A program made the translations under genes and the position numbers. From Escherichia phage AV112, in the sequence record OR352942.1: a stretch of DNA of 64,000 nucleotides; one strand, given 5' to 3'. This document shows, piece by piece, positions 29,648-47,763 of this stretch. The first letter of the stretch is position 1, and each line of letters opens with the position of its first letter. Under the pieces are notes generated by a model. It saw only the letters and a list, made by a program, of their open reading frames with translations, was not told where the DNA came from and made no database searches.

Positions 29648-30117
29648 TTGGCCTTATATTCGAGAGTAGGACAGATTTTTTCTTTACGAGCTTTAAGGTA
29701 TTCACCTATTAATGATTTCTTACGTTCAATAGGCTCAAGACCATTTTTAATTCGTTCTTGGTTTTGTGCAATGAGCTCAATTTCTTTATAATATTTTCTG
29801 TCGTTATATTTGTCTAACAACCAAGACGGACCAATTACCAACCCGGTAGCAATAAAAGCCATGACTGCTACCATTAAAATGCCTACACCAATTGAGGCCG
29901 GAACTAATGTCCATAGACTGCTAAAAACAAAGAATCTAGTTAAAATTTCCTGGCCAATGATTACTACTGCTGCTAAAATAGCAAATCCAATAATTGAAAC
30001 AGACAATACTGGGATTAACGTTTTCCAAAAATAAGCACACAACGTTTTCGGGCGATTCCATGTACTATTGAACGCGGCATAAATTTTAAAGTGCCAAGAG
30101 TTTTCATTGATAATCAT
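29644..30117 (-). CDS. Membrane protein
   Basis: 157 aa with two to three predicted transmembrane helices. Confidence 0.5.
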   Translation of the reverse strand: MIINENSWHFKIYAAFNSTWNRPKTLCAYFWKTLIPVLSVSIIGFAILAAVVIIGQEILTRFFVFSSLWTLVPASIGVGILMVAVMAFIATGLVIGPSWLLDKYNDRKYYKEIELIAQNQERIKNGLEPIERKKSLIGEYLKARKEKICPTLEYKAK

Positions 30118-30126
30118 AATAATTCC

Positions 30127-30657
30127 TTATTTCAAAGTCGGGATAATAGAATCAAGATAAGCTTTAAGAGCAACTGCTTCATCTTTGTCTAATGTAATGA
30201 TATGTTGACGAAGGTCATCAATTTGACGAATAACTACGACATCGCCATCTTCATAAGAAGGATTAACGCCTAAGACCGTTGTAGAGTCAGGGTTGGCCGG
30301 ATTTGTAATAAAAGCATTACGGCATTTAGCCCATTGAAGTTTGGCCTTTTTGGCTGTTTCAGATTCCACGAATTCTTTCACCTTAGTGACGAATGTTTTC
30401 CAATTATTAATAGAAAAACATTCGTCTTCAGTTTCGATATTAACCCCACTATAAAGTCCATGATAAAAACGAACTTGAAGGTCTTCGTCAATGTTAATTA
30501 CAGATGCATGGCCCGGTGGATTGAGTTTCAAAATCTTGTCCAGTTCCATAGGAAGAATAGTAGCAGCATCATCTTCTTGTGTCAGAACATACACATAACC
30601 ACGTTTTTCGATACATAAATCACCAAACAACTCGGTTGTTTCAATTACAGTTTTCAT
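30127..30657 (-). CDS. Hypothetical protein
   Basis: Start placed at MKTVIETTELFGD; the ORF-track start is a TTG codon. Confidence 0.45.
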   Translation of the reverse strand: MKTVIETTELFGDLCIEKRGYVYVLTQEDDAATILPMELDKILKLNPPGHASVINIDEDLQVRFYHGLYSGVNIETEDECFSINNWKTFVTKVKEFVESETAKKAKLQWAKCRNAFITNPANPDSTTVLGVNPSYEDGDVVVIRQIDDLRQHIITLDKDEAVALKAYLDSIIPTLK

Positions 30658-31216
30658 ATTATTCACCAATTAAAGTTTCAACAAAATTCACCAAAGCATT
30701 CTGGCAAGCATCAACCTGATTTTCATAAAAGTCTCCGTTATCATTTACCGCATGATAAGCTACATCATTCAAATCTGAATCGGCTTCACGTAAGTCACGG
30801 ATAAGGTCCATCAATTTATTAGCTTGTTCACGGGTCATTTTACCATACTCGTTTCAATAAGATTCACTATGCCGTTTACCATGTTATAAGTAAACATCGG
30901 ATAATTGTATTGTACTACAACATAAGCGATAAGCAAAAGTTTCATTTTGTTCTCCATTTGTTTTGGTAGGATTACTATATCATAGTCCTACCAAGACGTA
31001 AACTACCGATTGTGTTTTAAATGTTGATAAAGTTCTTCAACTTGTTTAGGGTCCAAAACAATTAAGTCATTTTCTTGGCGAAGATAAATCCATCCCTTAT
31101 CCCCAGGGCCATTTTTACAAAACATCACCACCGTATCATCATCTTCAGCGCTTTCAGGTAAAAGTTCAAGTACACCGTCTTCAGATTTTCCAGTATAATC
31201 GTAAAGCATAATGTCC

Positions 31217-31396
31217 TCACATAATCTCGTTAACATACATTTGTAATTCGGTGTGGGCTTCGGCCATCTTTTTCATAGCTTTGTTAATGTCGATGTCTCC
31301 ATCTTCGCATCCATGAGCATTTTCCCAATCAGATACCGCATTAGCGTACTCTTCAATCAAAAACATTAACTTAGAAATTTTTTCTTTACGTGTCAT
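31217..31396 (-). CDS. Small hypothetical protein
   Basis: Start placed at MTRKEKISKL, preceded by GAGGAGAACGTT-ATG. Confidence 0.4.
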   Translation of the reverse strand: MTRKEKISKLMFLIEEYANAVSDWENAHGCEDGDIDINKAMKKMAEAHTELQMYVNEIM

Positions 31397-31462
31397 AACG
31401 TTCTCCTCTAGTAAGTAAAGACTACTATAACACAACCTGAGGAGAAGTAAACTGCTAAACGC

Positions 31463-31490
31463 AAAAAAGCCCCAACCATAAGGAAGGGGC
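31463..31490 (-). terminator. Rho-independent terminator (minus strand), copy of a recurring hairpin
   Basis: Plus strand reads aaaaaa-GCCCCAACC-ataa-GGAAGGGGC; it lies downstream of rI. Confidence 0.6.
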
Positions 31491-31497
31491 TAGTAAA

Positions 31498-31800
31498 TTA
31501 GATAGATGTAGGCTCTAATTTTATTTTCATGAACTCGGCAAATTGTCTGGCAGTTTTTATGCCTTGTTCATGACATTCAAATGCATCATCACAGGGGCTA
31601 TTTTTGTAATGCTTTGCCATATACTTATAGAATTTTTCAGAATTCTCGACATTTTGAATTTCAAACAAAGTATATACGTTTTTAATCCCTGATTCCATAA
31701 AGTTATCAAAATATGGGTCGGTATACGCAGTACCAACGTTAGGAGTTGTTGCTGCAAAAAACCCCAGCATCGCCATGACAGCTATCGCTCTTAAGGCCAT
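31498..31800 (-). CDS. rI: Lysis-inhibition regulator rI
   Basis: 100 aa with a signal anchor; MALRAIAVMAMLGFF...DPYFDNFMESGIKNVYTLFE resembles recalled T4 rI; it sits adjacent to tk as in T4. Confidence 0.75.
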   Translation of the reverse strand: MALRAIAVMAMLGFFAATTPNVGTAYTDPYFDNFMESGIKNVYTLFEIQNVENSEKFYKYMAKHYKNSPCDDAFECHEQGIKTARQFAEFMKIKLEPTSI

Positions 31801-31812
31801 ATAGGCCTCCTG

Positions 31813-32025
31813 TTAATTTTGGCCAGTATTTATTTTTCGCCTTTGGACGGCCTTAACATCTGTGAGGTATTTTTCCAGCTTGCGCTTGCGTGTATAATCA
31901 GCTTTAGAACCAGTTTGACGGATATCCTCGTTTAAATGAGAAATAGAATGTCCTAATTCTCTTCGGATTTCATCCAATTGGGTTACAGTAAGATTACGAA
32001 GTTGTCTTTCGTTTAATTGCTGCAT
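31813..32025 (-). CDS. Hypothetical protein (rI.-1 position)
   Basis: 70 aa ORF. Confidence 0.4.
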
Positions 32026-32052
32026 ATATACCTCTTGGTTAGATATTAGTAT

Positions 32053-32634
32053 TTATAACAACCCTGTCAAATCATTCCAATGCTTCCGGCATAATGACAC
32101 ATATCTATCAGTATCACCAATTTCAATTTGACTGCCATCTGTAATTGGAAGTCCGTCTTCCGTGACTCTAGCTACCATTGTGGCCTTTTTACCACAGTGA
32201 CAGACACCTTTAAGTTCAACAAGCTTATCAGCAATAGCCATTAACGCTTGAGAACCTTCAAATAGATTACCTTTAAAATCTGTTCGTAGTCCATATGCCA
32301 TTACCGGCACATTGTATACGTCAACAATACGACTAAGTTGATACACCTTTTCAGTAGTTAAGAACTGAGCTTCGTCAACAAATACACAATGAATATCCTT
32401 TTGTGCTGCAGCCCATTTATAGAATTCAAAGATATCCATGTCTTTTGTAATTATATTGGCGTCCTGACGAATACCAATACGAGAGACTATTTCACCTTTT
32501 GAATCACGAGTATCAATAGCCGGTTTAAGAACTAATACACCCATGCCACGTTCTTTATAGTTATGTGCGGCAGTAAGTAATGAAGCAGACTTACCAGCGT
32601 TCATAGCGGCATATGTAAAAATTAAACTAGCCAT
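32053..32634 (-). CDS. tk: Thymidine kinase
   Basis: 193 aa; P-loop AAMNAGKS and a C-terminal Zn-ribbon CHCGKKA...C; collinear with recalled T4 Tk. Confidence 0.93.
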   Translation of the reverse strand: MASLIFTYAAMNAGKSASLLTAAHNYKERGMGVLVLKPAIDTRDSKGEIVSRIGIRQDANIITKDMDIFEFYKWAAAQKDIHCVFVDEAQFLTTEKVYQLSRIVDVYNVPVMAYGLRTDFKGNLFEGSQALMAIADKLVELKGVCHCGKKATMVARVTEDGLPITDGSQIEIGDTDRYVSLCRKHWNDLTGLL

Positions 32635-32635
32635 T

Positions 32636-32824
32636 TTAATCCTTAGTTAAATTTTCTAAATATGTTTTTAAATCATTTTCAGCTTTATCGATAGATTTTA
32701 CTAATTCGTAATATGTTTCGGCATCTCCATATTCAGAAGATAATTCAAAAGACAAATCCTTTTCTAAACTAATAATTTCACCAACTAAAAATAATATTTC
32801 GTTCTTTTGTTCGCGAGTAATCAT
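32636..32824 (-). CDS. Small acidic protein (tk.x paralog)
   Basis: 62 aa; similar to the neighbouring 63-aa ORF. Confidence 0.4.
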   Translation of the reverse strand: MITREQKNEILFLVGEIISLEKDLSFELSSEYGDAETYYELVKSIDKAENDLKTYLENLTKD

Positions 32825-33012
32825 AAGGAATTTATATAATCAATGAGTTCTTGTTCTTTATTATCGAATTCTTTAGAAAGTTCTTCGTACTCGTTTGCAC
32901 TAAAAGGACCGCATTCATTACAAACTTTTTCCAATTCACTATTTTTATCCATAACTTCATGGATAAGAGAAAAGAGTTTGTCTTTTTGTTCTTTACTTAA
33001 ACTCATAACCAT
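32821..33012 (-). CDS. Small acidic protein (tk.x paralog)
   Basis: 63 aa. Confidence 0.4.
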   Translation of the reverse strand: MVMSLSKEQKDKLFSLIHEVMDKNSELEKVCNECGPFSANEYEELSKEFDNKEQELIDYINSL

Positions 33013-33230
33013 GTCACCTTTAAGCAGTATTCTTCTACATGCTGTTTACGACCTTTCTTATCAATAAAGGTATATTCAACGAATGTTCCGATGTAGTCTT
33101 TATCTACATCATGTGGACTATTAATTGGACATTTGGTACGACAAATGCGTTCCCATTGACGAATAATTACTGCCTTATTCTTTGGGTCATATGGATGTGG
33201 ATAATGTATATTCATAATAATGGTTCCCAA
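33003..33230 (-). CDS. Hypothetical protein
   Basis: 75 aa ORF. Confidence 0.4.
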   Translation of the reverse strand: MGTIIMNIHYPHPYDPKNKAVIIRQWERICRTKCPINSPHDVDKDYIGTFVEYTFIDKKGRKQHVEEYCLKVTWL

Positions 33231-33709
33231 TCAACAATCACAATTTCTAGTTTAGTGGAATACGTATCTAAAATCTCTTCGATGACATCCCAGTTTCCAC
33301 CACCGATACCTGCACCAATTCTTGGCATATAAATTACAGGCTTTGTTATCTTATTCTTTCCGAATTCATTTAATTCTATTATACAATTCATTAAAGCATA
33401 GTACTCAAAATTAGGTCCAGGCTCAAACTGTGTATAAAGATTAAAGCAATAAGCTTTATGGGTCTTAAAATATTTTTCATAAACCGAATAAGTCCCGAGT
33501 TTAGACTCGTCTCCGAATTCGGTTTGAAGTTTATCGGCTTCTAAAATTTTTGGATAAGCCTTTGCTAATTGTCCTGCCACACCAGCGCCCATTGTATGAA
33601 AACAATTACACCCATGAGCAATATTATTACCTTTAGAAAACAGGGCGACAATATCGCCCTTGATATAGTTTTTAATCACTTGCTGCAAGTCCTCTAGTAT
33701 AAGAGTCAA
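33212..33709 (-). CDS. Macro-domain protein (ADP-ribose binding/processing)
   Basis: Gly-rich motifs NIAHGCNCFHTMGAGVAGQLAK and IGAGIGGGNW are characteristic of macro domains. Confidence 0.5.
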   Translation of the reverse strand: MTLILEDLQQVIKNYIKGDIVALFSKGNNIAHGCNCFHTMGAGVAGQLAKAYPKILEADKLQTEFGDESKLGTYSVYEKYFKTHKAYCFNLYTQFEPGPNFEYYALMNCIIELNEFGKNKITKPVIYMPRIGAGIGGGNWDVIEEILDTYSTKLEIVIVDWEPLL

Positions 33710-34019
33710 CTAGACGGTCCACCATAGAATTGCATGCTGCCTTATCTTTAGGTTCCGCCACCGAGCATTCTAATATTTGCCATTTTTTATAGTATCTTTT
33801 AATTAAGGTAGACGCCTTGAACCTACTAGTCGCCCCATCTTTTTCTCCGTCTTTATACGCATATAACAATTTTTGTGAAAAATCTACTTTACACTCTTGA
33901 CTTTTACCACAATAATCAGACGCTGTTCTGTTTGTATACTCCGTTACATCAGTATATGTAGTATTAGCAAGAGCGTTAAATGAAACCAAGCCAACTATTA
34001 AAGCCAACATTTTGGTCAT
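33672..34019 (-). CDS. Secreted protein (T4 vs position)
   Basis: 115 aa with signal peptide MTKMLALIVGLVSFNALA; assignment is by position only. Confidence 0.4.
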   Translation of the reverse strand: MTKMLALIVGLVSFNALANTTYTDVTEYTNRTASDYCGKSQECKVDFSQKLLYAYKDGEKDGATSRFKASTLIKRYYKKWQILECSVAEPKDKAACNSMVDRLVDSYTRGLAASD

Positions 34020-34558
34020 TCTTTTATTTCCAGTAGTTTGTTTGATTTAAGGTAATTAGCCTTTTCTAGGACTTCAGAAGCATATTTACTTCCAGCACTT
34101 GTCTTCCATCCCGCATTATATGAGGATATAGCTTTTCTTATATCCCCGTTATGTATATTTAACCAATAAGAAAATTCGATATAAGCCCATCTGGCTGAAT
34201 TAGACCGCTTAGATAGCATTTTCTTAATTTGGGCATCAGTCATATTATAACCAAGCTGGTTAATTCTTGCCCTCATTGTTGGTAGATAATTTTGGAACAT
34301 TCCATACGCATGGTGACCTTTCTTATCTTTAAGATTAATACCGGCAGATGATTCCTGCCATAGTATTGCGGCCATTATGTATCCAAGTCCTTTCTTATGC
34401 ATGTTTTCATGCGTTTTAAATTTTCCATCCTTAGAAAACTGTTCCCCAAACTGATAAGCATAATTCAAGTTATCGAGTTGGACATTACTAAAAGTATGCT
34501 CGGAGCTATGTGCTGATAATGAAAGAGCAAATAGACCAGCGAGTAGTGCTTTTCTCAT
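34016..34558 (-). CDS. Periplasmic lytic transglycosylase-like protein (SLT domain)
   Basis: Signal peptide plus LWQESSAG and GMFQ motifs typical of SLT-family catalytic sites. Confidence 0.55.
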   Translation of the reverse strand: MRKALLAGLFALSLSAHSSEHTFSNVQLDNLNYAYQFGEQFSKDGKFKTHENMHKKGLGYIMAAILWQESSAGINLKDKKGHHAYGMFQNYLPTMRARINQLGYNMTDAQIKKMLSKRSNSARWAYIEFSYWLNIHNGDIRKAISSYNAGWKTSAGSKYASEVLEKANYLKSNKLLEIKE

Positions 34559-34566
34559 GTTTACCT

Positions 34567-35025
34567 CTAGATTTTAATCACTGCTTTAGAAGCTTTTCCT
34601 GGTAGTCGTTTACTGTTAATAATAGCCATTCTGCATTGAAGAGTCTTCATTTTGAACGCTGGATTTTCGCGACAAACTGTAAGTCCTAACCAAAGATTTC
34701 CGTCAGTTATTTCTAAACGGCCTGGGCGATATTCGACACCTTCGACAAAATCTTCATCAACATCTGGACGTGCCGGCATTGATAAAAATTCTGTAACTTC
34801 TTTAACATGATTTTTTACTTTACGAAATAATTCAAAAACGTAGTTCTCATCTATTTCTCTCTGGATGGCACGATCTAAGAGATGTTGAGAATACTTGATA
34901 TGAAAGCCTGGTAGTCCAAGAGACTTTGCAGCATCTTTTATACCGGCATTTATTTTGCGGAACTCCGTTTCAAAGATTCGACGGAGTTTATTACGGCGGA
35001 TAAAAACGTCAGAATTGATAGTCAT
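34567..35025 (-). CDS. regB: Endoribonuclease RegB
   Basis: 152 aa; MTINSDVFIRRNKLRR...YSQHLLDRAIQREIDE...RMAIINSKRLPGKASKAVIK is near-identical to recalled T4 RegB. Confidence 0.88.
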   Translation of the reverse strand: MTINSDVFIRRNKLRRIFETEFRKINAGIKDAAKSLGLPGFHIKYSQHLLDRAIQREIDENYVFELFRKVKNHVKEVTEFLSMPARPDVDEDFVEGVEYRPGRLEITDGNLWLGLTVCRENPAFKMKTLQCRMAIINSKRLPGKASKAVIKI

Positions 35026-35054
35026 TTTTTATTTCTCCTCTAGTTGACAGGTCT

Positions 35055-35083
35055 ATAGTAACACATCTAGAGGAGAAGTAAAC
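35055..35083 (-). promoter_or_regulatory. Sigma70-type early promoter upstream of regB
   Basis: Minus strand reads GTTTAC, a 17-nt spacer, then TACTAT. Confidence 0.5.
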
Positions 35084-35087
35084 TACT

Positions 35088-35303
35088 TTATTGATAAAAT
35101 GGAGTTAAAGCCCAAGATTCTTTAGATACCATATCGGCGAAATGCCTCATCTCTTCGATTTGGCGACGACGCTGGTCAGCATAGTCTTCTTCGCCTTCTT
35201 CCTTACAATCTTCAAGGTCTTCTTCAAGATACTTTAAGTATTCACTACAAATTTTGTTGATCTTTTCTTGAAAGTCCAATAACCCTGTAATAGTAGAAGC
35301 CAT
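35088..35303 (-). CDS. Small acidic protein (vs.3 position)
   Basis: 71 aa ORF. Confidence 0.4.
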   Translation of the reverse strand: MASTITGLLDFQEKINKICSEYLKYLEEDLEDCKEEGEEDYADQRRRQIEEMRHFADMVSKESWALTPFYQ

Positions 35304-35569
35304 TAGTATTTTTCCTCAGGTCGAAATACTGCACGACACGCCCACATGCTGGCTTCTTTTAGATGTTGCTTAGCATACTTAAGAGCCTGCACTGCATCCA
35401 TATCTTCTTTGGTTTGTTGCTCTGATTCATTTTCTTTCAAGATATATGCTTCTTCAATCAGAGCATCAAACATCAATCCAAGACGGACTTCTGCATCTTT
35501 AATAGCGTTCACTTTACTGATTTTATCATCGGTATGCGGCTTGTAGCCTTTGATGTCTTCAATCGACAT
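35303..35569 (-). CDS. Small protein in the T4 vs.4 position (candidate Acb2-like cyclic-nucleotide sponge)
   Basis: 88 aa from MSIEDIKGYKPH, preceded by GAGGAAATTCCTT-ATG; identity is by position only. Confidence 0.35.
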   Translation of the reverse strand: MSIEDIKGYKPHTDDKISKVNAIKDAEVRLGLMFDALIEEAYILKENESEQQTKEDMDAVQALKYAKQHLKEASMWACRAVFRPEEKY

Positions 35570-35783
35570 AAGGAATTTCCTCATCGGTGGCAAGGTCATA
35601 TTCGACCAATTGGATAGGCTCATTAATACCGTATCCGCGTACAGTGATATCGGTTGACGGATATTTTCCAGTAATATCACCAATTCTAAATGATTCAATG
35701 AATGATTGCTCGCCTGAGCAACTAAACCAGGCGGCAAAACATTTTAAAACATCTTCAGACCCTTCTATAATCAATTTAGCCAT
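35559..35783 (-). CDS. Hypothetical protein (vs.5 position)
   Basis: 74 aa ORF. Confidence 0.4.
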   Translation of the reverse strand: MAKLIIEGSEDVLKCFAAWFSCSGEQSFIESFRIGDITGKYPSTDITVRGYGINEPIQLVEYDLATDEEIPYVD

Positions 35784-36145
35784 TATAGGCTCTCAGTAAA
35801 GGTACGAGCGATAACGTCGCGCTGCTGTTCCGGAGTCAGAGAGTTAAAGCGAACTGCATAACCGGATACACGGATGGTCAGCTGTGGATATTTTTCCGGA
35901 TGCTTAACTGCATCTTCCAGAGTTTCACGACGCAGAACGTTAACGTTCAGGTGTTGACCACCTTCAATTTTAACTTTAGGTTGATGTTCAATTTCAATTT
36001 CACGGGCATTCAAACCGTAGAAAATTTCTGGGTCTACAATAGCGTCTTCTTTAAAAGTCTTAGAGACAATAATCCGGGCTTGAGCACCGTCTTCAAAATA
36101 AATAGTGCCTTTATGTACACCTTCAAGAATTTGATATGCTTTCAT
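35783..36145 (-). CDS. Autonomous glycyl-radical cofactor protein (GrcA/YfiD-like)
   Basis: C-terminal 60 residues are essentially identical to recalled E. coli GrcA ([59 protein letters not shown]), including the RVSGY glycyl-radical motif. Confidence 0.8.
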
Positions 36146-36151
36146 ATAACC

Positions 36152-36508
36152 TCAATTAGAAAATAAATTTATCCAAGATTTTTCTTTAATCAAAAATGGG
36201 TCGGAATTAAACGCCATTAAACTTTGGGTGATTAATCCCTTAAATGGTCCATCAATAAATTCCATTTTGAAATGTGGAATACTAGTCATCAACCGTGCAT
36301 TAGGAGCAGTACAAAGAACCTGCTGACCTGCGAACGGACCTTTAGTCAAACGATATCGTTTAGGTTTAAAATGGTAAATCTCGTAATTTTCTACAAGAGC
36401 CCTTTTATTGCATACTGGGCTGTTATAACAATACTCAAAAACTTCAATAGTGGTCATCATTGCATTCCAATCACAAAAAATTGAGGACGAGCAATACCGC
36501 CGATGCAA
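36152..36508 (-). CDS. Hypothetical protein
   Basis: 118 aa ORF. Confidence 0.4.
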   Translation of the reverse strand: MHRRYCSSSIFCDWNAMMTTIEVFEYCYNSPVCNKRALVENYEIYHFKPKRYRLTKGPFAGQQVLCTAPNARLMTSIPHFKMEFIDGPFKGLITQSLMAFNSDPFLIKEKSWINLFSN

Positions 36509-37032
36509 TATTTGCTTTTGCAGCAGTGCTGTATTGCTTTAATATGGACATTGTAAATCTTATCCATATCAGGAGCTTTAATAGGCTCGTCAATTATATA
36601 CAGAATACGAGAAAGCGTTAATCCACGGAATTTAGAACCTTCATTACCAATAAAACTACGGACAGAATCAGTAAATAAACGGAATCGAATATCATCGCTA
36701 GAATAACGTGAAAATTCTTTTTTAATGTTGCCAGCAGAAATTTTAGCATAAGCTGAAGTATTAGAAAGAACAATAACTGTTCCACCATCGAGCAGCCAAT
36801 TAGCGGCAAAATTAGTTACTGCGGTAGATTTACCAGATTGTCTGCCACCGTCTAAACGAAGTGTACAGTACTGCTTGAGTACGTCTTCAAATGGTGGGGC
36901 ACAACCGTTCTTACAAATTTCTTCTACTCTAGCATCAGAATGGTGTGTAAAAGCATTCATCAGGGATAGATAAGGTCCAGTTAAAAATGTTCTCATATTA
37001 TTTCTCTTAAGGTTTGGGCCATTCCATGGCAC
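36457..37032 (-). CDS. P-loop protein
   Basis: Walker A DGGRQSGKST. Confidence 0.45.
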   Translation of the reverse strand: MPWNGPNLKRNNMRTFLTGPYLSLMNAFTHHSDARVEEICKNGCAPPFEDVLKQYCTLRLDGGRQSGKSTAVTNFAANWLLDGGTVIVLSNTSAYAKISAGNIKKEFSRYSSDDIRFRLFTDSVRSFIGNEGSKFRGLTLSRILYIIDEPIKAPDMDKIYNVHIKAIQHCCKSKYCIGGIARPQFFVIGMQ

Positions 37033-37274
37033 ATGTTAGGTCCTTCGATTCGCTATGTAAACCCATTACCGCACTTGGGCTCGACCTTATTACAGGTTGG
37101 CGGGAATCCCTCATAGAATCATGAGGTCCAGGTTGTTCCCATGTTATTTGAATGTAAATATTTTTGCCGTAATACTTATACCAGTGTGGCTTCGTTAAAA
37201 TTTTTTCATCGAGTCATTTTACCTCTCCAAGTAATTATGAATATACTATCACAATTTTAGGAGAAAGTAAACTG

Positions 37275-37577
37275 TTATTTACCTTTAATTACTTTAGCTG
37301 CTTCGATAGCCGCTTGCTGAAGGTCATCCATCGACATACCGAATTTAGAAGCAAAGTTATCAATTTTCTTTTCGACAGCATTCAAAGGCTTGGCCTGTTT
37401 ACCTTCATTAGCGCCAGGAAGAGCGAGAATACGCTCTTTGTCAATATAAAGGCTTACAAGTTTCTTACGGTCTTTATCGGACAAATCATGAAATGAATGG
37501 GCCTTTTTATTTATAGCGGCTTCTAATTTACCTGCACTCACTCGCGCTTCAGTAATAAATTCTTGATATGTTTTCAT
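37275..37577 (-). CDS. Internal protein (IP) with capsid-targeting sequence; ipII position
   Basis: Starts MKTYQEFITEA, matching the T4 internal-protein capsid-targeting consensus MKTYQEFIAE; 100 aa as for T4 IPII. Confidence 0.65.
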   Translation of the reverse strand: MKTYQEFITEARVSAGKLEAAINKKAHSFHDLSDKDRKKLVSLYIDKERILALPGANEGKQAKPLNAVEKKIDNFASKFGMSMDDLQQAAIEAAKVIKGK

Positions 37578-37618
37578 ATGTTTCCTTTAAATGTAAATAG
37601 GCCTAAATATAGGCCTTA

Positions 37619-38197
37619 TTAATTACCACGGGCTGCATTAGCAACGGCGTAAGCGTACTGAACATTAGCGTCTTTAAACGTACCTTTAGAGGTATCTAGT
37701 TCTGCCTTAAAGCCACCTTTAGCCATAACATCGGCAAATTCTTTACGGAAGGCCATTGCATCAAGACCTTTCCATGATGATTTGTGCTTGGCGAATTCAA
37801 GACCAGCGTAGTTGACAGCCTTAGCTAATTTATTATCAATGACCCATTTACCGGCTTTAGGCACAAACACCGGGCCTTTCTGTTTAGAGAATAGTTTTAA
37901 ATTCCAGCGACGAAGATCACTGTCGGCTTTAACAAAAGCTGCGTCTAAGTTACTAGCAACAACATCTTGAATATGGCCAAATTTAAGCCCATCAACTTCA
38001 ATATTTAAATCGGTACGCCAGCGAAGTCCTTCCCAAGCGAAGGCTTTAAAATCAGAAGCTTTTGTGGCTAGATATCGTTCAAGTGGAGCAGTTTTAGGGT
38101 CAAAGCCGTTACCGCCACGATAAGTCCACTCGTCCTTATTAATGCCTTGAGCTTTTCCTGCAAAGGCCTCGGCGATAAATTCTTTATATGTTTTCAT
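37619..38197 (-). CDS. Internal protein (IP) with capsid-targeting sequence; ipIII position
   Basis: Starts MKTYKEFIAEA; 192 aa. Confidence 0.65.
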   Translation of the reverse strand: MKTYKEFIAEAFAGKAQGINKDEWTYRGGNGFDPKTAPLERYLATKASDFKAFAWEGLRWRTDLNIEVDGLKFGHIQDVVASNLDAAFVKADSDLRRWNLKLFSKQKGPVFVPKAGKWVIDNKLAKAVNYAGLEFAKHKSSWKGLDAMAFRKEFADVMAKGGFKAELDTSKGTFKDANVQYAYAVANAARGN

Positions 38198-38260
38198 TTT
38201 TGTTTCCTTGTTTGTTTTGATAGAGTAATTATACCATATTAATACTTAAGCGTAAACTGT

Positions 38261-38521
38261 TTAAGCTTTACCGCCGGAAATAATTCCGAAGTTGTTAAAA
38301 TCGTATCCAATATCGTCAACATCTACTTTAGGACTTGTAGCAACATAAGCAATTTCACTACGTTTTGCATAGGTGTTGATTTCTTTACCATCGCCACCTA
38401 AGAAAAAATACCCATTACGTTTTAATGAGCCAAAGTCTTCCGCATCACCAATGAAAGCTTTAACTTTAAATTTAGGACCTTTGGCATCTGCTTCAGCGAT
38501 AAATTCTTGATACATTTTCAT
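38261..38521 (-). CDS. Internal-protein-like small protein
   Basis: Starts MKMYQEFIAEA. Confidence 0.55.
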   Translation of the reverse strand: MKMYQEFIAEADAKGPKFKVKAFIGDAEDFGSLKRNGYFFLGGDGKEINTYAKRSEIAYVATSPKVDVDDIGYDFNNFGIISGGKA

Positions 38522-38527
38522 TTTTCC

Positions 38528-38941
38528 TTAGTAAATTGATTTACCATAGTATTTGTACCAAGTAGGACGTTGAGCAATTTTTTCATCTAAGCGTGCTTGA
38601 CTTATCGCAATGGACGCTTCGGACGGGACATAATTATTACGAAATTCGGCAGGGATGTCGGAAATATCCTGGACAGTCGTGTCCTTGATTTTGAAACCAC
38701 GTTTCAAGCATTCAGCGATTAGCTCGATTTGTCGTAAACGTAAAAATTCGAGTTTGTCGTAAAAGAATGTTACGTGGCCGGTGCCTAAGATAAATGTTGG
38801 AGAGATTTTAAAATCCTTTACACGTTTACCATTTTGAACATGTTTACGGACTGCACCGAATACACGAGGTAATTCACGATACTCAGCCATAAGATGTTGG
38901 TCGGTCAGTTCAGAAACAAGTGTTAAATTGATACGGGTCAT
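38528..38941 (-). CDS. denV: Endonuclease V (pyrimidine-dimer DNA glycosylase)
   Basis: Start trimmed to [12 protein letters not shown]; near-identical to recalled T4 DenV across its length. Confidence 0.93.
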
Positions 38942-38968
38942 AATTTCCTCCAAGTAGTTGATGAATGT

Positions 38969-38998
38969 ATAGTATCAAAACCCTTGGAGGAAGTAAAC
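38969..38998 (-). promoter_or_regulatory. Sigma70-type early promoter upstream of denV
   Basis: Minus strand reads GTTTAC, an 18-nt spacer, then TACTAT. Confidence 0.5.
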
Positions 38999-38999
38999 A

Positions 39000-39281
39000 C
39001 TATTTTTCTGAAGCGCCTGAAATATATTTTTCAAGACGTTGTTTCATCAGCGAGCCGTTCTTAGCGATTTCTTCCGGTTTATCGCACATACGCAACAAGG
39101 CTTCAAGCTTAACGATATCACTGGTGCGTTCAAATTTGCGAGTATCTATCTTACTAGCAAGTTCAGAAATACGTGCTAATAGACTTTCGGCTTCAACCAA
39201 AGCTGCACCTAGCTTAGTTGCAAATGTGTCAGTAGCTTCGTTAAGAATAGATTCTGATAAAAATTCACTATATGTTTTCAT
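39000..39281 (-). CDS. Internal-protein-like protein
   Basis: Start at [10 protein letters not shown]; its ATG overlaps the stop codon of gene e (ATGA). Confidence 0.55.
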
Positions 39282-39766
39282 ATATACGCTTTCCAAGTTC
39301 CTGTTTTAAATGTTGAGATTACGCGTTTCGCGCGATTAGGTGTCTGACGATACCATTTAGATTGGGCTAGATTTACTGCCGCTTCGTCCCAACGTTTCTG
39401 TTGAAGCATACGAAGAGAATTAGTAAAACCGGCGACGCCTGCTACACCCATTTGGAAGACCATATTGACCAGTGCACATCGACGAACCGCATCTAAAGAA
39501 TCGTATACCGGTTTAAGTTTAGCATTACCCAAGATTCCGCGAACGGCTTTATCAACGTCTTCATTAAATAACTTTTCAGCCTCATCAAGGGTAATTGTAC
39601 CGTTGCATTTACGTCCGATCATTCTGTCAAGTTCAGCTTTAGCTACGGTTAAAGACGGGTTCTTTGTTACTAAATGACCTATGCCAATCGTCCAAAAGCC
39701 TTCAGTGTCTTTGTATAAAGTCAGTCTAAGACCTTCGTCATTACGAAGCATTTCAAATATATTCAT
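39278..39766 (-). CDS. e: Endolysin (T4 lysozyme)
   Basis: Start trimmed to [15 protein letters not shown], preceded by GGGAGGTATT-ATG; near-identical to recalled T4 lysozyme. Confidence 0.95.
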
Positions 39767-39800
39767 AATACCTCCCACGTTTATAGGAGGTATTTATTAC

Positions 39801-40259
39801 TTATAGGAGGGTAGTGAGCACCTTATATAATGATTTGCCCATTACATATTCCCATTGAGAAGGTTTAATTAAAGCGAATGCATCAAATTCAGGAATCTGA
39901 CGTCCGTCTTGGAATGTATGATAGGAATTACAAACACTGTTTCTGAATTGCTCGTGCTCTACAGGGATGGTATATAGGAACAGATGAATATTCTTATTGT
40001 CTGAGTAATGATGTTCACCTAGGTCTTTCAGGAAGGCAGGGTCATATTGTGTAAACCCAGTTTCTTCTTCGCATTCACGAACAGCGGCTTCGATAGGAGA
40101 TTCACCTGGCTCGACACGGCCTTTAGGAATATCCCACCGATGAGCTAAAGAACCTTTAGGACGAGAACCAGTTACACGCCCCATGAATAATTCTTTATCT
40201 TCGGTAAGGAAAATAATACCGGCTGATAGTTCTTTCACTTTATTTTTCTTACTCATCAT
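39801..40259 (-). CDS. nudE: Nudix hydrolase NudE
   Basis: Nudix box GRVEPGESPIEAAVRECEEETGF; lies next to e as in T4; the start among the two or three adjacent Met codons is uncertain. Confidence 0.85.
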   Translation of the reverse strand: MMSKKNKVKELSAGIIFLTEDKELFMGRVTGSRPKGSLAHRWDIPKGRVEPGESPIEAAVRECEEETGFTQYDPAFLKDLGEHHYSDNKNIHLFLYTIPVEHEQFRNSVCNSYHTFQDGRQIPEFDAFALIKPSQWEYVMGKSLYKVLTTLL

Positions 40260-40747
40260 CTCAAATTCCTGCATTCGGTAATAAAACGTTCAACTTCATT
40301 ATTCTTGGCCTTTATCTTGTCTTTACGTTCCTGTAAACTACTTTTAACAAGATTAATAATGATGGCGGCGGTACCGCCGCCAATGATGCCACCAACAACA
40401 CTTATGATACTAGATGCTAATAAGATAGCAATAATATCAACAAAACCGAAAGAACTCACCTTAGTACTGAAAAACCATATAGACGGCACAAATATAATCC
40501 ATCCTGTTATCCATTGGCACTTATTGAAAAACTTTTCAAGCTCAGCTTGAGTTGTTCGTATTACTTCATCGATAGGTTTATATCCATTAATGTATCTGTT
40601 CACGATAATACCTGCTGGCTGGTCGATTTTAAATTCTTGGCAAATATGTTTAACTAAGTAGGATGGACATCCTGTCCAATCTACTGAATAGTATGAAATA
40701 CCTTCATTGCCATCGTCTATATTAGACCAATATGTTTTGTTAATCAT
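40256..40747 (-). CDS. Membrane protein ending in a FITECR motif
   Basis: 163 aa with a C-terminal transmembrane region; ends ERFITECRNLR. Confidence 0.5.
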   Translation of the reverse strand: MINKTYWSNIDDGNEGISYYSVDWTGCPSYLVKHICQEFKIDQPAGIIVNRYINGYKPIDEVIRTTQAELEKFFNKCQWITGWIIFVPSIWFFSTKVSSFGFVDIIAILLASSIISVVGGIIGGGTAAIIINLVKSSLQERKDKIKAKNNEVERFITECRNLR

Positions 40748-41418
40748 TACCAGCCTTCCATAGGGAATTCCAGATAAACTTGAGCATTGACACGAATTTC
40801 ATTGGTAATCTTTTTAACTCGGTCTGTATTACGAGATACACGTCCGAACCAACGCCATCCATTACTAATTGCACGAGAACCAGTGTGCCATGTTTGCCAA
40901 TCAAACTGAAGAAGAGTACGATCTGGAGCTTCCCATTTCTCTAGTTCACCTTTTTCGATTTTTTCGAGGACTTCTTTGTGCCACTGGCGATAGATAAGTT
41001 CGCCATCAGGAATCTGACTGAACTCTGCAGTTCCTGTTGCAAAATGAGTAGGACACACATCAGCGTTAACAAGACCAAGAATATGTTCAGAATGGTAACG
41101 AGGGTTGTCATAGTCAGGTTGTCCTGCAGTAATAAAGTGTTGACCAACTGGAATATCAGGGCGTGGTACGTCATCATGGTGATAGCCTGGGATTGCAGGA
41201 TACCAACCAGGCATCAGCATGTGGACTCGTGAATCAAATACAACCTGGTCGGTGTTCCAATCATCAGGAAGATTTTGGATAAAGCTACGAGTAATTGGGC
41301 CACCATTATCAAAAGCAAAATTCAAATCGCAGTTAAAGAACATAGGCTCGTTTTTAATCTGGTTGTTTTTAATCTCATGAGCAAAACCACCTACTGCACG
41401 AGCTTGGCTATTAAACAT
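40747..41418 (-). CDS. Hypothetical protein
   Basis: 223 aa, His/Asp-rich ORF with no recognisable family. Confidence 0.5.
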   Translation of the reverse strand: MFNSQARAVGGFAHEIKNNQIKNEPMFFNCDLNFAFDNGGPITRSFIQNLPDDWNTDQVVFDSRVHMLMPGWYPAIPGYHHDDVPRPDIPVGQHFITAGQPDYDNPRYHSEHILGLVNADVCPTHFATGTAEFSQIPDGELIYRQWHKEVLEKIEKGELEKWEAPDRTLLQFDWQTWHTGSRAISNGWRWFGRVSRNTDRVKKITNEIRVNAQVYLEFPMEGW

Positions 41419-41434
41419 ATTATTTTCCTCGATA

Positions 41435-41740
41435 TTATTTTCCTCGGCATTCTTTAATGAAATTTTCTAGATTGGTAGATTCAATAGCTTTTTTACGAGC
41501 TTCTGCGTGTTCTTCTTCAGACAATTTACATTTATAATTGACCCAGGCATTATGGTCGAAACTAGTCGTGGCATATAATAACAATGCTCCGACGAATAAT
41601 AAAAACGGTGATAAGAATACAAAACCAGGAACACCATCCATATCGTAAGCCTTTTGTAATACTGCAACAGAAAGGGCCGCGTAAAAAGGTGATGCAAATA
41701 TTGTTAAAAGACCAATTCGGTTGGTTTCTGTTAATTTCAT
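41435..41740 (-). CDS. Membrane protein ending in a FIKECR motif
   Basis: 101 aa with two transmembrane helices; ends ENFIKECRGK. Confidence 0.5.
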   Translation of the reverse strand: MKLTETNRIGLLTIFASPFYAALSVAVLQKAYDMDGVPGFVFLSPFLLFVGALLLYATTSFDHNAWVNYKCKLSEEEHAEARKKAIESTNLENFIKECRGK

Positions 41741-41768
41741 ATTATTCTCCTCATGTTTTAATAGGACT

Positions 41769-41798
41769 ACTATAACATAGTCCTATCATGTTGTAAAC
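41769..41798 (-). promoter_or_regulatory. Sigma70-type early promoter with palindromic -10 region
   Basis: Minus strand reads GTTTAC, an 18-nt spacer, then TATAGT, embedded in the inverted repeat ATAGGACTA/TAGTCCTAT. Confidence 0.5.
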
Positions 41799-41810
41799 AG
41801 TTTTGTGAAG

Positions 41811-42767
41811 TTATTTGAAAGGTTTCACCATATGAAAATTTTCTTTAAACCGTTTGATGTAATCATTTTTGCCGAGCTTATGATACATAGCCACTACTTC
41901 ATAATAGTTCTCGTATGCGTACTCACGGAACCAACCAGAGGTGATGCTTGTACAGACCTTTTCCAATGCCATCATGAAACTGGCTTCAGGGTTAATTTTA
42001 AAGTCATTAGGAATCTGAGAACGTTCTAATGCTAGTACACATGATTCTTCGTATACACCGGCCAATTTGACCATTTCTGGTAATGATTCGAACTTCTCTC
42101 GTGAGGTCATGACTTCAGAACCGTCTTTCATATAAAATGTATACGCTGGACGGTCTGTTAGCGCAATGGCTTCATGAATAGTATCATGGTCATATGTATA
42201 GATGTCATCTTTAAAGAACGCACTTTTAGAAGTGTCAAGAACTGGGTGAGCATAGTTCAAGGTTTCTTTCTGGCGTTTCAGCATAATTTCAGTAAGTTCA
42301 TCGTTCAGTGTAACACCTTTACCGCGAAGATACTGAATATGGTTCATAGTCTTTAAAAAGAATGGATTATTTTTCTTGAAACGATGAGACATCTTAATTG
42401 CAAGACACATCTCAGGAGTTGCCCAGTAAAACCCGTTCAAACGGTCTTTAGTCAAATTTTTCTTGGCGTATTTTAAAAGGTCATAAGAAGACGTGAAATC
42501 TTCAGGAGTGAGTTCACCGACTAATTCACGGACATTAGTGATTGCCGGAACAATATATGCTTCAAAATGAGTTTCGCGTCCGTTATGGAAACATTTGAAA
42601 ACTTGGACACCAGGGTTATCTTGATGAACGTATACACCCATCATTTGATTTTTGAATGCATTCCAAGAACCTTGGTCTGCAATAAAGTCCCAGTCACTAT
42701 TTTTGATAGCGTTAGAATCAATAAGACCGTGATAGTGAAGTGCACGAGAACCAATAACTAACATCAT
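41811..42767 (-). CDS. Hypothetical protein
   Basis: 318 aa ORF. Confidence 0.5.
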   Translation of the reverse strand: MMLVIGSRALHYHGLIDSNAIKNSDWDFIADQGSWNAFKNQMMGVYVHQDNPGVQVFKCFHNGRETHFEAYIVPAITNVRELVGELTPEDFTSSYDLLKYAKKNLTKDRLNGFYWATPEMCLAIKMSHRFKKNNPFFLKTMNHIQYLRGKGVTLNDELTEIMLKRQKETLNYAHPVLDTSKSAFFKDDIYTYDHDTIHEAIALTDRPAYTFYMKDGSEVMTSREKFESLPEMVKLAGVYEESCVLALERSQIPNDFKINPEASFMMALEKVCTSITSGWFREYAYENYYEVVAMYHKLGKNDYIKRFKENFHMVKPFK

Positions 42768-42795
42768 AATATTTTCCTCGGATTAATTCATTAAC

Positions 42796-43047
42796 TTAAA
42801 TTTCACGACATGCGATATCATATTCATCCCATAGGTCATCGTGTGAAGCCTCTACTAATGGAACGATTGTACCATTTATGTCTTCATTATAAGGGCAAAT
42901 TGTACAGTGTGCATCTTCGAATCGGATGCCTTTGTGTTCAGATTTTTTATAACGCATATCGAATATCTTTGCAAACTTTTCACGAGTAATGGTTTTAGCA
43001 ACCACTTTGGTTCCAACACTTTCGTAATAAATCATTGTGGACTCCAT
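42796..43047 (-). CDS. Small Cys/His-containing protein
   Basis: 83 aa; HCTICPYN...ACREI. Confidence 0.45.
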   Translation of the reverse strand: MESTMIYYESVGTKVVAKTITREKFAKIFDMRYKKSEHKGIRFEDAHCTICPYNEDINGTIVPLVEASHDDLWDEYDIACREI

Positions 43048-43063
43048 TTAATTTGATAGGACT

Positions 43064-43093
43064 ACTATAACATAGCCCTATCTTGTTGTAAAC
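43064..43093 (-). promoter_or_regulatory. Sigma70-type early promoter with palindromic -10 region
   Basis: Same architecture as the promoter at 41769, with the palindrome TAGGACTA/TAGCCCTA. Confidence 0.5.
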
Positions 43094-43097
43094 TGTT

Positions 43098-43295
43098 TTA
43101 GCAAGAATAACTAGATGATACCCAGCCTTGAACAGTAATACTATTATTTGATACCGAGATTGCATTCTGGAGATTCAAACCTGCATTATCTTCAATCCAC
43201 AATGTAACTTCTTCGCGTTCTTCTGTTGCAATTTGGAACAGGTTTTCTAGGGCAGCTACTGCCGTACGTACAGCACAATCCAATTCACGAGACAT
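43098..43295 (-). CDS. Small protein, C-terminal W-V-SSS-x-SC family (member 1)
   Basis: 65 aa; ends QGWVSSSYSC. Confidence 0.45.
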   Translation of the reverse strand: MSRELDCAVRTAVAALENLFQIATEEREEVTLWIEDNAGLNLQNAISVSNNSITVQGWVSSSYSC

Positions 43296-43304
43296 GTAGT
43301 TTCC

Positions 43305-43577
43305 TTAGCAAGTGTGAGAAGATGCAATCCAACCACCAGTTTCAAGGCTCAGGTTGTAGTCGTATTGGTAAACGTCAGCCCATTCAGCATAGCCGTTTTT
43401 TGTACAACGTTCAAGATCGGCTTTAAGTTGTCCGGGTGAATGATATGTTCCACCCATACCATAAGCTGGATACAAGTCGAATGTTGTGTTTTGTTTATCA
43501 GCAATTTCTTTGGCAGCCTCAATAGCTGCATAGATTTTTGCTACGGCTTCAGCCAGTTCGGTTTGTTCTTTAGACAT
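43305..43577 (-). CDS. Small protein, C-terminal W-I-ASS-x-TC family (member 2)
   Basis: 90 aa; ends GGWIASSHTC. Confidence 0.5.
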   Translation of the reverse strand: MSKEQTELAEAVAKIYAAIEAAKEIADKQNTTFDLYPAYGMGGTYHSPGQLKADLERCTKNGYAEWADVYQYDYNLSLETGGWIASSHTC

Positions 43578-43586
43578 AATGATTCC

Positions 43587-43892
43587 TTAGCACAACGCAG
43601 AAGACGAAACCCAAGCACCTTCAGTAATAACGTAACCATTACCTTCACGCTTAACATCGCCACCATTATTTTCAATTTCATCTTTCATCCACTGGGATAC
43701 GATTTCACCCTTAGGATAATAAGTACGACCGCTACCATAATCACCTACAGAAAATGATACGGCGTATTGGTCTGCGATCTTTGTTGCTTCTTCTTCGATA
43801 CGTTCAGCTTGATTCAGAAGTTTATAAATTGCATCTGAAGCGGATTTGGCATCATTAAACTCTGGTACTTTAATTTCAATAATCTTACTCAT
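43587..43892 (-). CDS. Small protein, C-terminal W-V-SSS-x-LC family (member 3)
   Basis: 101 aa; ends GAWVSSSALC. Confidence 0.5.
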   Translation of the reverse strand: MSKIIEIKVPEFNDAKSASDAIYKLLNQAERIEEEATKIADQYAVSFSVGDYGSGRTYYPKGEIVSQWMKDEIENNGGDVKREGNGYVITEGAWVSSSALC

Positions 43893-44248
43893 TTTCTACA
43901 TTCCTTAATAAAGTTTTCGATTGTTTCATTTTCACGTCTAGCTAGGAGTTCATTATAACTAATCATTTGAGAAGCGTAAACCTTTTTATTTTTCTTGTTA
44001 TGGTTTATAAAATCGTAGTAAAAATAGACTACAGTACAAAATGATGCGATGGATGCAAAGGCTTGGGTATACCGTAAGTCCTGCCATTGGTCTGTGAATC
44101 CACCAGTGTTCCCTATAAATCCTAACACAACGCCGTCAATAAGAAATCCAACTAATCCAAAGGCAAATCCCATGCCAATACTCATAATAAAAATTAGAAT
44201 GTTCTCACCAAGAGAAGGCCATACGGTTAAGAGTTGAGGCTTTTGCAT
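43889..44248 (-). CDS. Membrane protein ending in a FIKECR motif
   Basis: 119 aa with two transmembrane helices; ends ENFIKECRK. Confidence 0.5.
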   Translation of the reverse strand: MQKPQLLTVWPSLGENILIFIMSIGMGFAFGLVGFLIDGVVLGFIGNTGGFTDQWQDLRYTQAFASIASFCTVVYFYYDFINHNKKNKKVYASQMISYNELLARRENETIENFIKECRK

Positions 44249-45208: not shown

Positions 45209-45236
45209 AAGGAGGACCGGAGTCCTCCGTATTATT

Positions 45237-45830: not shown

Positions 45831-45852
45831 ATTATTACCTTTCAATTGGTGG

Positions 45853-46711: not shown

Positions 46712-46801
46712 AACATTTTCCTATGTTGTTGATAAGTCTATAGTATCATGTCCTTAGAAGAAGTAAACATCTTTATGAAATATTTTTATGCCCTAGATAC
46801 C

Positions 46802-46828
46802 AAAAAGCCCCAACCGTAAGGAAGGGGC
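46802..46828 (-). terminator. Rho-independent terminator (minus strand), copy of a recurring hairpin
   Basis: Plus strand reads aaaaa-GCCCCAACC-gtaa-GGAAGGGGC. Confidence 0.6.
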
Positions 46829-46834: not shown

Positions 46835-47299
46835 TTATTTAATTTGTTTAGCAGACCAGATACGGTCTTTAATAAGTTTTTGGATATCTTCAACATACTC
46901 AAGGCTATGAGCGTGAGGATTATCTTTGAAGCTATGTGCTCGTGCCAGTTTCTGGCCTTCTGTTTTGATTACTAAAAGCTCTTTAAGAATTGCTTCATAC
47001 TTAGAAATAATTCCTTTGGCGATATTTTTTTCTTGAGCGGCTTTAGGGTCCGCTTTTGGCGCAGGTGCTTTACCTGTAGCTTTCTGGAACAATTCACCTG
47101 ATGCAGCTAGGCTTTTAAAAACTCGGCTAACAGTATTAGCATTAGTAAAACCTTCGGCTTTAAAATCTCTAATAAAACGGAAACGTTCTTCATCAGAGGC
47201 GTCTTTGTAAGAATATTTACCTGCTCTAATTGCTGCAATCGCAGCGGCTTTTACATCTGAACTAGATTGTTCAGTCAAAAATTCAGCGTATGATTTCAT
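46835..47299 (-). CDS. Internal-protein-like protein with capsid-targeting sequence
   Basis: Starts MKSYAEFLTEQ. Confidence 0.5.
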   Translation of the reverse strand: MKSYAEFLTEQSSSDVKAAAIAAIRAGKYSYKDASDEERFRFIRDFKAEGFTNANTVSRVFKSLAASGELFQKATGKAPAPKADPKAAQEKNIAKGIISKYEAILKELLVIKTEGQKLARAHSFKDNPHAHSLEYVEDIQKLIKDRIWSAKQIK

Positions 47300-47343
47300 G
47301 TTGCTTTTCCTAAGTTAATTAACTTATCTATTTATTATTATGC

Positions 47344-47371
47344 AAAAAAGCCCCAACCTTTCGGAAGGGGC
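47344..47371 (-). terminator. Rho-independent terminator closing the tRNA/stable-RNA transcription unit
   Basis: Plus strand reads aaaaaa-GCCCCAACC-tttc-GGAAGGGGC. Confidence 0.6.
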
Positions 47372-47423
47372 TATGCCTTGCGGCAACCTTGTCGGGGTTC
47401 CACCTGCTAAGGCAAGTGTTTGT

Positions 47424-47515
47424 ACGAAACGCCGGGATTCGAACCCGGTTATTAAGCAGTTGACGCTACTCAATATTTTTAAAAGGCCATATCTCGACCA
47501 TATCCGAACGTTCCG
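47424..47515 (-). ncRNA. tRNA-like element or small stable RNA (T4 rnaC/rnaD position)
   Basis: Minus strand has a canonical T-arm CCGGG-TTCGAAT-CCCGG and a 7-bp acceptor-like stem (CGGAACG pairing with CGTTTCG), but the ~60-nt body does not fold as D and anticodon arms. Confidence 0.3.
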
Positions 47516-47683
47516 TCAAAAACGCTACTCGGCTTACGGCAAAGATATTTCCTCGAATCGATAATTCTGTGCGCCGTTTCAGCTGTGATAGTAAAGAACC
47601 AGAACACAGTAAAACTGTGGGAGGAACTATACTCCAGGGAACATCAGTCCGACGACTTACCGGTAGCGACCCGGTTTCTTGTT

Positions 47684-47759: not shown

Positions 47760-47763
47760 GATT

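Follow-up and report, generated by a model that had tools for sequence, protein, structure and literature searches.

The DNA analysed here, referred to as the window, is a stretch of 64,000 nucleotides that corresponds to record positions 96000-159999 of Escherichia phage AV113 (OR352943.1, the source of the record coordinates given below), an RB69-like Mosigvirus (Straboviridae, Tevenvirinae) with a 168-kb genome. Within the window, the plus-strand pattern GCCCCAACC-N4-GGAAGGGGC (search pattern GCCCCAACCNNNNGGAAGGGGC) is found exactly at positions 31469-31490, 46807-46828 and 47350-47371, and each occurrence is preceded by a run of A residues, namely A6 at 31463-31468, A5 at 46802-46806 and A6 at 47344-47349, respectively. 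A first-pass annotation had listed the same three occurrences with their A-runs, and an exact pattern match returns its coordinates unchanged; its further remark that only the tetraloop differs holds for the stem, in which all 18 bases are the same in the three copies, but not for the U-run of the transcript, the length of which varies as well (6, 5 and 6 nt). In dinucleotide-preserving shuffles, a mean of 0.01 matches is expected at up to 3 mismatches and none of 100 shuffles reaches three; chance is therefore excluded as the source of three exact copies. Each hairpin is located in an intergenic gap, the adjoining genes lie on the minus strand throughout, and in minus-strand RNA the element reads GCCCCUUCC-loop-GGUUGGGGC-U5-6, with the tetraloops UUAU at site 1, UUAC at site 2 and GAAA at site 3.

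The two arms of the hairpin are imperfectly complementary, as positions 6-7 and 16-17 face each other in a 2x2 U.U/U.U internal loop (A.A/A.A on the plus strand). The structure predicted by RNAfold comprises a 5-bp G/C base, the U.U/U.U internal loop, a CC/GG pair and the tetraloop, with the U5-6 tract directly after the stem. For the bare 22-nt hairpin, the folding energy amounts to -13.0 to -14.1 kcal/mol, and with flanks it reaches -15.8 to -21.5 kcal/mol, at z-scores of -2.7 to -3.5 against shuffles; the plus-strand version with its A.A/A.A loop is weaker than the minus-strand form (-11.1 versus -13.9 kcal/mol). The U.U hairpin is about 4.5 kcal/mol less stable than its paired forms and stays within the usual terminator range, the loop being nearly neutral in the energy model. 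A simple terminator scan of window positions 30000-49000 lists 28 sites and none of the three hairpins, because the internal loop breaks its stem rule, and standard terminator scanners overlook them for this reason. An Rfam search over window positions 46600-48700 returns tRNAs alone, with no family for the hairpin, rnaC or rnaD, and a full-text literature search for the arm sequences retrieves only unrelated human or viral primers.

The first copy lies 7 nt downstream of the stop codon of rI (window 31498-31800; phrog_1246, 'lysis inhibition'), and consists of the hairpin GCCCCUUCC-UUAU-GGUUGGGGC (31469..31490, minus strand; exact match, fold and 42.8 bits with the covariance model) followed by its U6 tract (31463..31468). 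A T4-type early promoter is predicted on the same strand at 31424..31452, with the -35 element GTTTAC at 31452-31447, a 17-nt spacer and the -10 element TATAGT at 31429-31424; it starts 16 nt past the hairpin, and is succeeded by the Shine-Dalgarno sequence AGAGGAG and an ATG at 31396 that opens a 59-aa ORF. Two loops are found downstream of rI in Mosigviruses, UUAU (AV113, L205 and L207) and GAAA (RB69, SQ17 and L206), and the stem is the same in both cases. Such a swap of the whole loop would most simply be read as a short conversion tract from another copy of the hairpin.

The other two copies are located close to each other at the end of the tRNA region, where 10 tRNAs, rnaD and rnaC form a single unit. 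The rnaC (species 1 RNA) homologue, the last gene of this unit, occupies 47423..47561 on the minus strand, as compared by eye with the T4 rnaC annotated in NC_000866, and 51 nt past it stands the site 3 hairpin GCCCCUUCC-GAAA-GGUUGGGGC (47350..47371, minus strand; exact match, fold and 48.5 bits) with its U6 tract (47344..47349). The late promoter consensus of T4 is TATAAATA; the late-promoter-like AATAAATA at 47329..47336 (minus strand) agrees with it in 7 of 8 bases, and relatives carry the perfect TATAAATA in its place. It is followed by the Shine-Dalgarno sequence AGGAAAAG and then by the ATG at 47299 of a 154-aa ORF (46835..47299, minus strand), the start of which, MKSYAEFLTE, can be aligned to the N-terminal ends of T4 IPIII, IPII and IPI (T4 IPII and IPIII begin with MKTYQEFIAE). 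The overall identity of this ORF to the T4 internal proteins (IPs) is 22-31% and largely N-terminal, its only PHROGs match is phrog_2280 (function unknown), and neither PHROGs nor the T4 comparison gives recognisable homology to a characterised IP; judged from its leader, 'internal-protein-like' appears to be a fair label. At 6 nt downstream of the stop codon of this ip-like ORF, the site 2 hairpin GCCCCUUCC-UUAC-GGUUGGGGC (46807..46828, minus strand; exact match, fold and 42.9 bits) is found with a U5 tract (46802..46806), and the downstream bases GGTATCTAGG match the T4/RB7 flank after the rnaC terminator. An AT-rich stretch then leads to a T4-type early promoter (46740..46768, minus strand; -35 element GTTTAC at 46768-46763, a 17-nt spacer, -10 element TACTAT at 46745-46740) that begins 38 nt past the hairpin and, with a Shine-Dalgarno sequence and an ATG after it, serves the ORF at 46208-46711.

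A 543-bp cassette made up of the late-type promoter, the ip-like gene and a hairpin is flanked by direct repeats, with site 3 as the proximal and site 2 as the distal copy. As predicted from these signals, the order of units would be an early tRNA unit, a late ip-like gene and an early ORF, each hairpin ending one unit before the next promoter. The gene contexts named in the first-pass annotation are borne out by the phrog_1246 assignment of rI, by the leader of the ip-like ORF and by the 10 tRNAs with rnaD and rnaC homologues before site 3, and its proposal that the hairpins are oriented to terminate minus-strand transcripts is supported, as far as the sequence goes, by GC-rich stems, U5-6 tracts, positions at unit ends and co-oriented genes. 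The U.U mismatch in the stem, the terminator-promoter junctions and the role of two hairpins as repeats around a mobile ip-like cassette are added here. In terms of annotation, the ends of three putative transcription units and the adjoining candidate promoters are thereby marked in a Mosigvirus. A wider relationship between sites 1 and 2 as paralogous whole junctions, considered for the promoter starts GTTTACTTCTCCTCAGG and GTTTACTTCTTCTAAGG, was rejected, as many of the roughly 45 early promoters share the spacer start; in a genome-wide listing of GTTTAC-N17-TAnnnT, what the promoters downstream of sites 1 and 2 have in common is the generic early-promoter consensus of this genome.

The search for further copies that had been suggested along with the three sites gave none at up to 3 mismatches in the remaining 104 kb of the AV113 record, and a covariance model run on the whole AV113 genome added one diverged member outside the window. 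This model returns four strong hits, the three window sites (42.8-48.5 bits) and a fourth at 35.8 bits, and the next-best hit scores 18.6 bits. The fourth member (record 17129-17157, minus strand) reads GGCCCTTCC-AAAAA-GGTCGGGCC-T6, with a compensatory change in the outer stem, a U.U/U.C internal loop and an otherwise like architecture, and the genome accordingly holds three identical stems and one covarying copy. It sits after a small ORF at record 17183-17350, presumably uvsY.-2 by its position in the T4 gene order, which converges on a uvsW.1-like gene, and the corresponding position is occupied in other T4-like genera by an exact GCCCCTTCC...GGTTGGGGC stem. The 10 distinct family members from which the covariance model was built have 86.7% of their cells paired; a single compensatory pair (C2:G21 to G2:C21) is seen in L070 and L203, along with wobble changes, and positions 6:17 and 7:16 hold A-U or G.U in the T4 and JK1 types and an unpaired U.U in 6 of the 10. 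The pairing score observed in this small set of 10 sequences is reached by 7 of 500 shuffles, and the support of covariation for the structure is modest.

The history of the cassette can be followed in relatives, for which the orthologous junctions were taken singly from GenBank phages, because IMG/VR searches with the rI protein and the rnaC 3' pattern yielded only 3 and 5 loci, respectively. In T4, rnaC is followed by a single, fully paired hairpin, GCCCCGACC-GAAA-GGTTGGGGC-TTTTTGGTATCTAAGCC, with a T5 tract, and the 3' arm of the rnaC terminator is common to T4, RB7, JK1 and RB69. Site 3 of AV113 has the upstream flank of this T4 hairpin and site 2 has the first ~15 nt of its downstream flank (TTTTTGGTATCTAGG); the intervening 543 bp therefore constitute an indel bounded by hairpin direct repeats. 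Three downstream contexts can be distinguished. In the first, T4 and RB7 lack the cassette and have rnaC with one hairpin, and JK1 and L204 possess it; in the second, RB69 is likewise without it (rnaC, one hairpin) and L202 and L072 carry it; in the third, it is present in AV113 and APCEc01. The C-terminus of the ip-like gene (...SAKQIK) recurs across the three. The presence and absence of one cassette in three contexts with the same hairpin as boundary supports the published idea that terminator-promoter junctions serve as seams for modular exchange among T4-like genomes. Moreover, in a sample of 60 spread records out of 944 phage records matching window 46000-48500, about 28 alignments begin at window positions 46792-46799 and 9 at 47344-47345, the outer edges of sites 2 and 3; the homology of T4-type phages begins at the latter and that of many phages at the former. 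Uninterrupted identity between sites 2 and 3 extends over 9 and 14 nt, and over 19 nt in JK1, where the shared repeat is GGTTGGGGCTTTTTGGTAT and its terminal TAT begins the TATAAATA of the cassette. Recombination would be the mechanism suggested by these footprints, with 9 and 14 nt of identity being short for homologous recombination.

A further recurrent homology breakpoint is seen at about window position 47684, between the rnaD homologue and tRNA-Arg. In many Mosigviruses (APCEc01, ATK47, HX01, RB69 and others), the match to the window breaks off at this point, beyond which they have 2 tRNAs and an extra ORF and AV113 has a T4-like block of 10 tRNAs; because of this difference, the AV113 tRNA cluster looks like an exchange with a Tequatrovirus-type segment.

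Junctions of this kind have already been described in phages, and the U.U mismatch pair in the stem is the odd detail. Promoter-early stem-loops (PeSLs) of T4-like phages are known from RB49/phi1, PST/T4 and nt-1/KVP40 (Arbiol et al. 2010, PMC2839356; Comeau et al. 2014, PMC4122927), where they terminate transcription in reporter assays, sit at indel breakpoints and form mini-circles (PMC2839356; PMC4122927). Sites 1 and 2 resemble them in that a stem-loop, an early promoter, a Shine-Dalgarno sequence and an ATG share one intergenic space, and the -35 and -10 elements of both agree with the TTTACW-N17-TAYWAT of the PST/T4 pair (PMC2839356; PMC4122927). Like PeSLs, the AV113 hairpins are repeated in the genome, have stems rich in G/C runs and lie at the boundaries of insertions, deletions or replacements among close relatives. 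Site 3, however, is followed by the late-like promoter and falls outside the strict definition, and the AV113 stem has a defined sequence of 9+9 nt that includes a tandem U.U mismatch, whereas published PeSL stems are of the GN-loop-CN (RB49), AGNA-loop-TCNT (PST) or A3-4G3-loop-C3T3-4 (nt-1) type. Other junctions of a hairpin with an early promoter are present at record positions 32577, 47324, 63656, 83463 and 89299.

The IP loci of T-even phages, which carry PeSL-like or analogous elements (PMC2839356; PMC4122927), offer a second point of comparison. As these two papers relate the work of Repoila et al. (1994, EMBO J 13:4181), variable IP genes with a conserved N-terminal leader are bracketed there by conserved intergenic regulatory sequences and swapped between phages; the AV113 cassette resembles loci so described in its IP-like leader and in adjoining the tRNA region. 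The stem-loops of T-even IP loci differ in being weaker, more AT-rich and generally without polyG (PMC2839356), whereas the AV113 hairpin is GC-rich and the same at both ends. The T4 rnaC terminator is the closest counterpart of site 3, with an orthologous position, the 3' arm GGUUGGGGC, a GAAA loop, a U5 tract and the same flanks; it differs in its 5' arm (GCCCCGACC), in a stem without unpaired bases, where positions 6 and 7 form G.U and A-U, and in being single, in contrast to the three identical U.U/U.U copies of AV113. Extra-stable C(UUCG)G hairpins are reportedly reused in the intercistronic regions of T4, an observation said to go back to Tuerk and colleagues (PNAS, 1988). They share with the present case the placement of one hairpin design at many intergenic sites of a T4-like genome, and differ in their stem as well as from the UUAU, UUAC and GAAA loops and the internal U.U/U.U loop of the three sites. 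A second reused terminator design, GGGAGAC-UUCG-GUCUCCC, occurs in AV113 itself at record positions 10419(+), 32615(-) and 55698(+), and, with close variants, also at record positions 47324, 63682 and 89324 and at window 62921(+), which is record position 158920; several copies of this UUCG design stand directly upstream of early promoters in PeSL-like junctions.

In the reading preferred here, held at a probability of roughly 0.78, the hairpins are intrinsic terminators within PeSL-like terminator-promoter junctions, are related by descent and have been spread with cassettes by recombination. As Rho-independent terminators for leftward (minus-strand) transcription, they would form the upstream half of a compact junction, and each would end one unit (rI, the late-expressed ip-like gene, or the tRNA/rnaD/rnaC unit), such that units of different timing are kept apart. 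The near-identity of the copies would reflect shared descent, and the hairpin form itself would be an old design in T4-like phages that is duplicated when recombination in the hairpin or next to it inserts or excises a cassette; the repeats at sites 3 and 2 would then be left over from such an event, and short conversion tracts would exchange loops between copies. A literature search retrieved no Term-seq or 3'-end mapping data for AV113, RB69 or T4.

The stem is far from confined to AV113. In IMG/VR, the exact U.U/U.U stem GCCCCUUCC-N4-GGUUGGGGC is present at 83 loci that form 34 groups without flank homology; these take in the phiEco32-like podophage NJ01 as well as genomes of RB43, KP15 and RB16 size, in each of which the stem has 3 copies; the locus counts from IMG/VR and from bacteria are raw and uncorrected for relatedness. 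A T-run follows the GGTTGGGGC arm in 79 of 82 IMG/VR copies, whereas an A-run precedes the other arm in 41 of 82, and the strand with the U.U pairs is therefore the transcribed one. The same count bears on the question of whether the hairpin acts mainly as a stabiliser or processing signal of the 3' end, as an exonuclease barrier or in the maturation of tRNAs and stable RNAs, in place of releasing the polymerase. Stable GC-rich 3' hairpins generally protect transcripts; the stem, U.U pairs included, shows stricter conservation than a need for pairing would explain; and a primary transcript that reaches site 3 has to be trimmed, given the 51 nt between this hairpin and the mature rnaC end of the T4 annotation. 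Nevertheless, a T-run directly after the stem is needed for termination and not for protection, and a terminated transcript ends in the hairpin anyway, which makes the two functions compatible; a role chiefly in stabilisation is accordingly considered unlikely, and termination remains the preferred function.

A function at the level of DNA has also been weighed, in which the hairpin would chiefly be a recombination site for a nuclease, a recombinase or a DNA-binding protein that moves cassettes, with any terminator activity secondary. The boundaries of the cassette and of homology do coincide with the hairpins, and Arbiol et al. (PMC2839356) speculated that the GGGG...CCCC stem-loop of PeSLs might be the target of a DNA-binding protein, recalling that GGGC/GCCC motifs are often found at T4 deletion endpoints. 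Furthermore, the stem is much commoner in phage contigs than in bacterial genomes: among bacterial species representatives (596 Gb), the motif followed by TTT occurs at 34 loci, none of them enterobacterial, as against the 83 loci of IMG/VR. However, no candidate enzyme is linked to the sites, short homologies suffice for T4-type recombination without a dedicated enzyme (cited in PMC2839356), and both the strand bias of the T-run and the compensatory and wobble changes that keep the pairing argue for selection on RNA; a dedicated DNA site is judged very unlikely. A host origin of the motif was likewise rejected, since no enterobacterial genome among the GTDB species representatives has it.

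Because the identical stem is shared with unrelated phages, identity among the three copies is weaker evidence of descent than it first appeared. The three sites might even have converged independently on a favoured terminator sequence, with neither duplication nor recombination among them; the recurrence of an identical 18-nt stem in 34 IMG/VR contexts with unrelated flanks, the podophage included, and the reuse of the GGGAGAC-UUCG-GUCUCCC hairpin at no fewer than three places in the same genome would be in keeping with this. Against convergence stands the indel between sites 2 and 3: the sequences on its two outer sides adjoin each other in T4, RB7 and RB69, the footprint of an insertion or excision at the hairpin. 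In the small sample at hand, no intermediate steps linking the GA, AG and UU versions of the 5' arm are seen. Independent origin is therefore regarded as highly improbable, and descent with recombination is retained for the copies of AV113.

The U.U pairs of the stem are conserved and occur with unusual frequency. The Watson-Crick versions are much rarer in IMG/VR, with 11 loci for GCCCCTTCC-N4-GGAAGGGGC and 2 for GCCCCAACC-N4-GGTTGGGGC, and in a general scan for GCCCC-NN-CC-N4-GG-NN-GGGGC, TT/TT accounts for 4 of 121 among the matches listed, on par with typical paired combinations. Possible causes of the excess include a founder effect with cassette shuffling, selection for pairing in RNA only, and recognition by a factor. 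Selection may have a basis in that the U.U pairs hold in RNA but spare the DNA a perfect palindrome and leave the antisense RNA with a weaker fold (-11.1 versus -13.9 kcal/mol); a factor of the host or the phage might instead recognise the U.U stem, be it for the efficiency of termination, for protection of the 3' end or as a hotspot of recombination through which cassettes spread. That the U.U/U.U stem is a specifically favoured, phage-enriched terminator design through either of these routes, and not a tolerated defect, is a doubtful proposition at present, and if it holds after phylogenetic correction, the excess would bear on the rules of terminator design. The derivation of the U.U stem as a chimera of two perfect hairpins, with its 5' arm taken from a UU/AA stem and its 3' arm from an AA/UU stem, is unsupported, given the rarity of the two perfect stems and the absence of a GGAAGGGGC 3' arm from these sites in every relative compared.

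Several minor observations accompany the database searches. Megablast of two IMG/VR contexts (L031 and L079) against GenBank phages gave no match, and that of a 6.4-kb segment of Escherichia phage NJ01 (L010; JX867715, record 34406-40762) gave 387 records, 160 of them at an identity of at least 99%. Many of the hits to the NJ01 segment come from T4-like phages of Klebsiella, Enterobacter and Cronobacter; they probably reflect short stretches of similarity, either in the shared hairpin and its A/T flanks or in a mobile HNH gene. A further, large set of IMG/VR loci (L089-L188) has tandem G.U pairs in GCCCCUGCC-N4-GGUGGGGGC, or carries the complement of this sequence, in many cases without a T-run (flanks, e.g., aagtagcaaata...tacctacaac), and may represent a different repeated element that is not a terminator. 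Finally, the window departs from the GenBank record of AV113 at positions 41418-41431, with 10 mismatches in 14 nt and an unchanged length, the sole difference within the 22 kb compared (record 124000-146000). The window reads AAACATATTATTTTCCTCGATATTATTTTCCTCGGC there, a tandem copy of ATATTATTTTCCTCG, and the AV113 record reads AAACACTTTAGAACTATTCATATTATTTTCCTCGGC; on the minus strand, the ribosome-binding site is duplicated and codons 2-6 are replaced in the ORF starting at record position 137432, which looks like an edit or an assembly variant.
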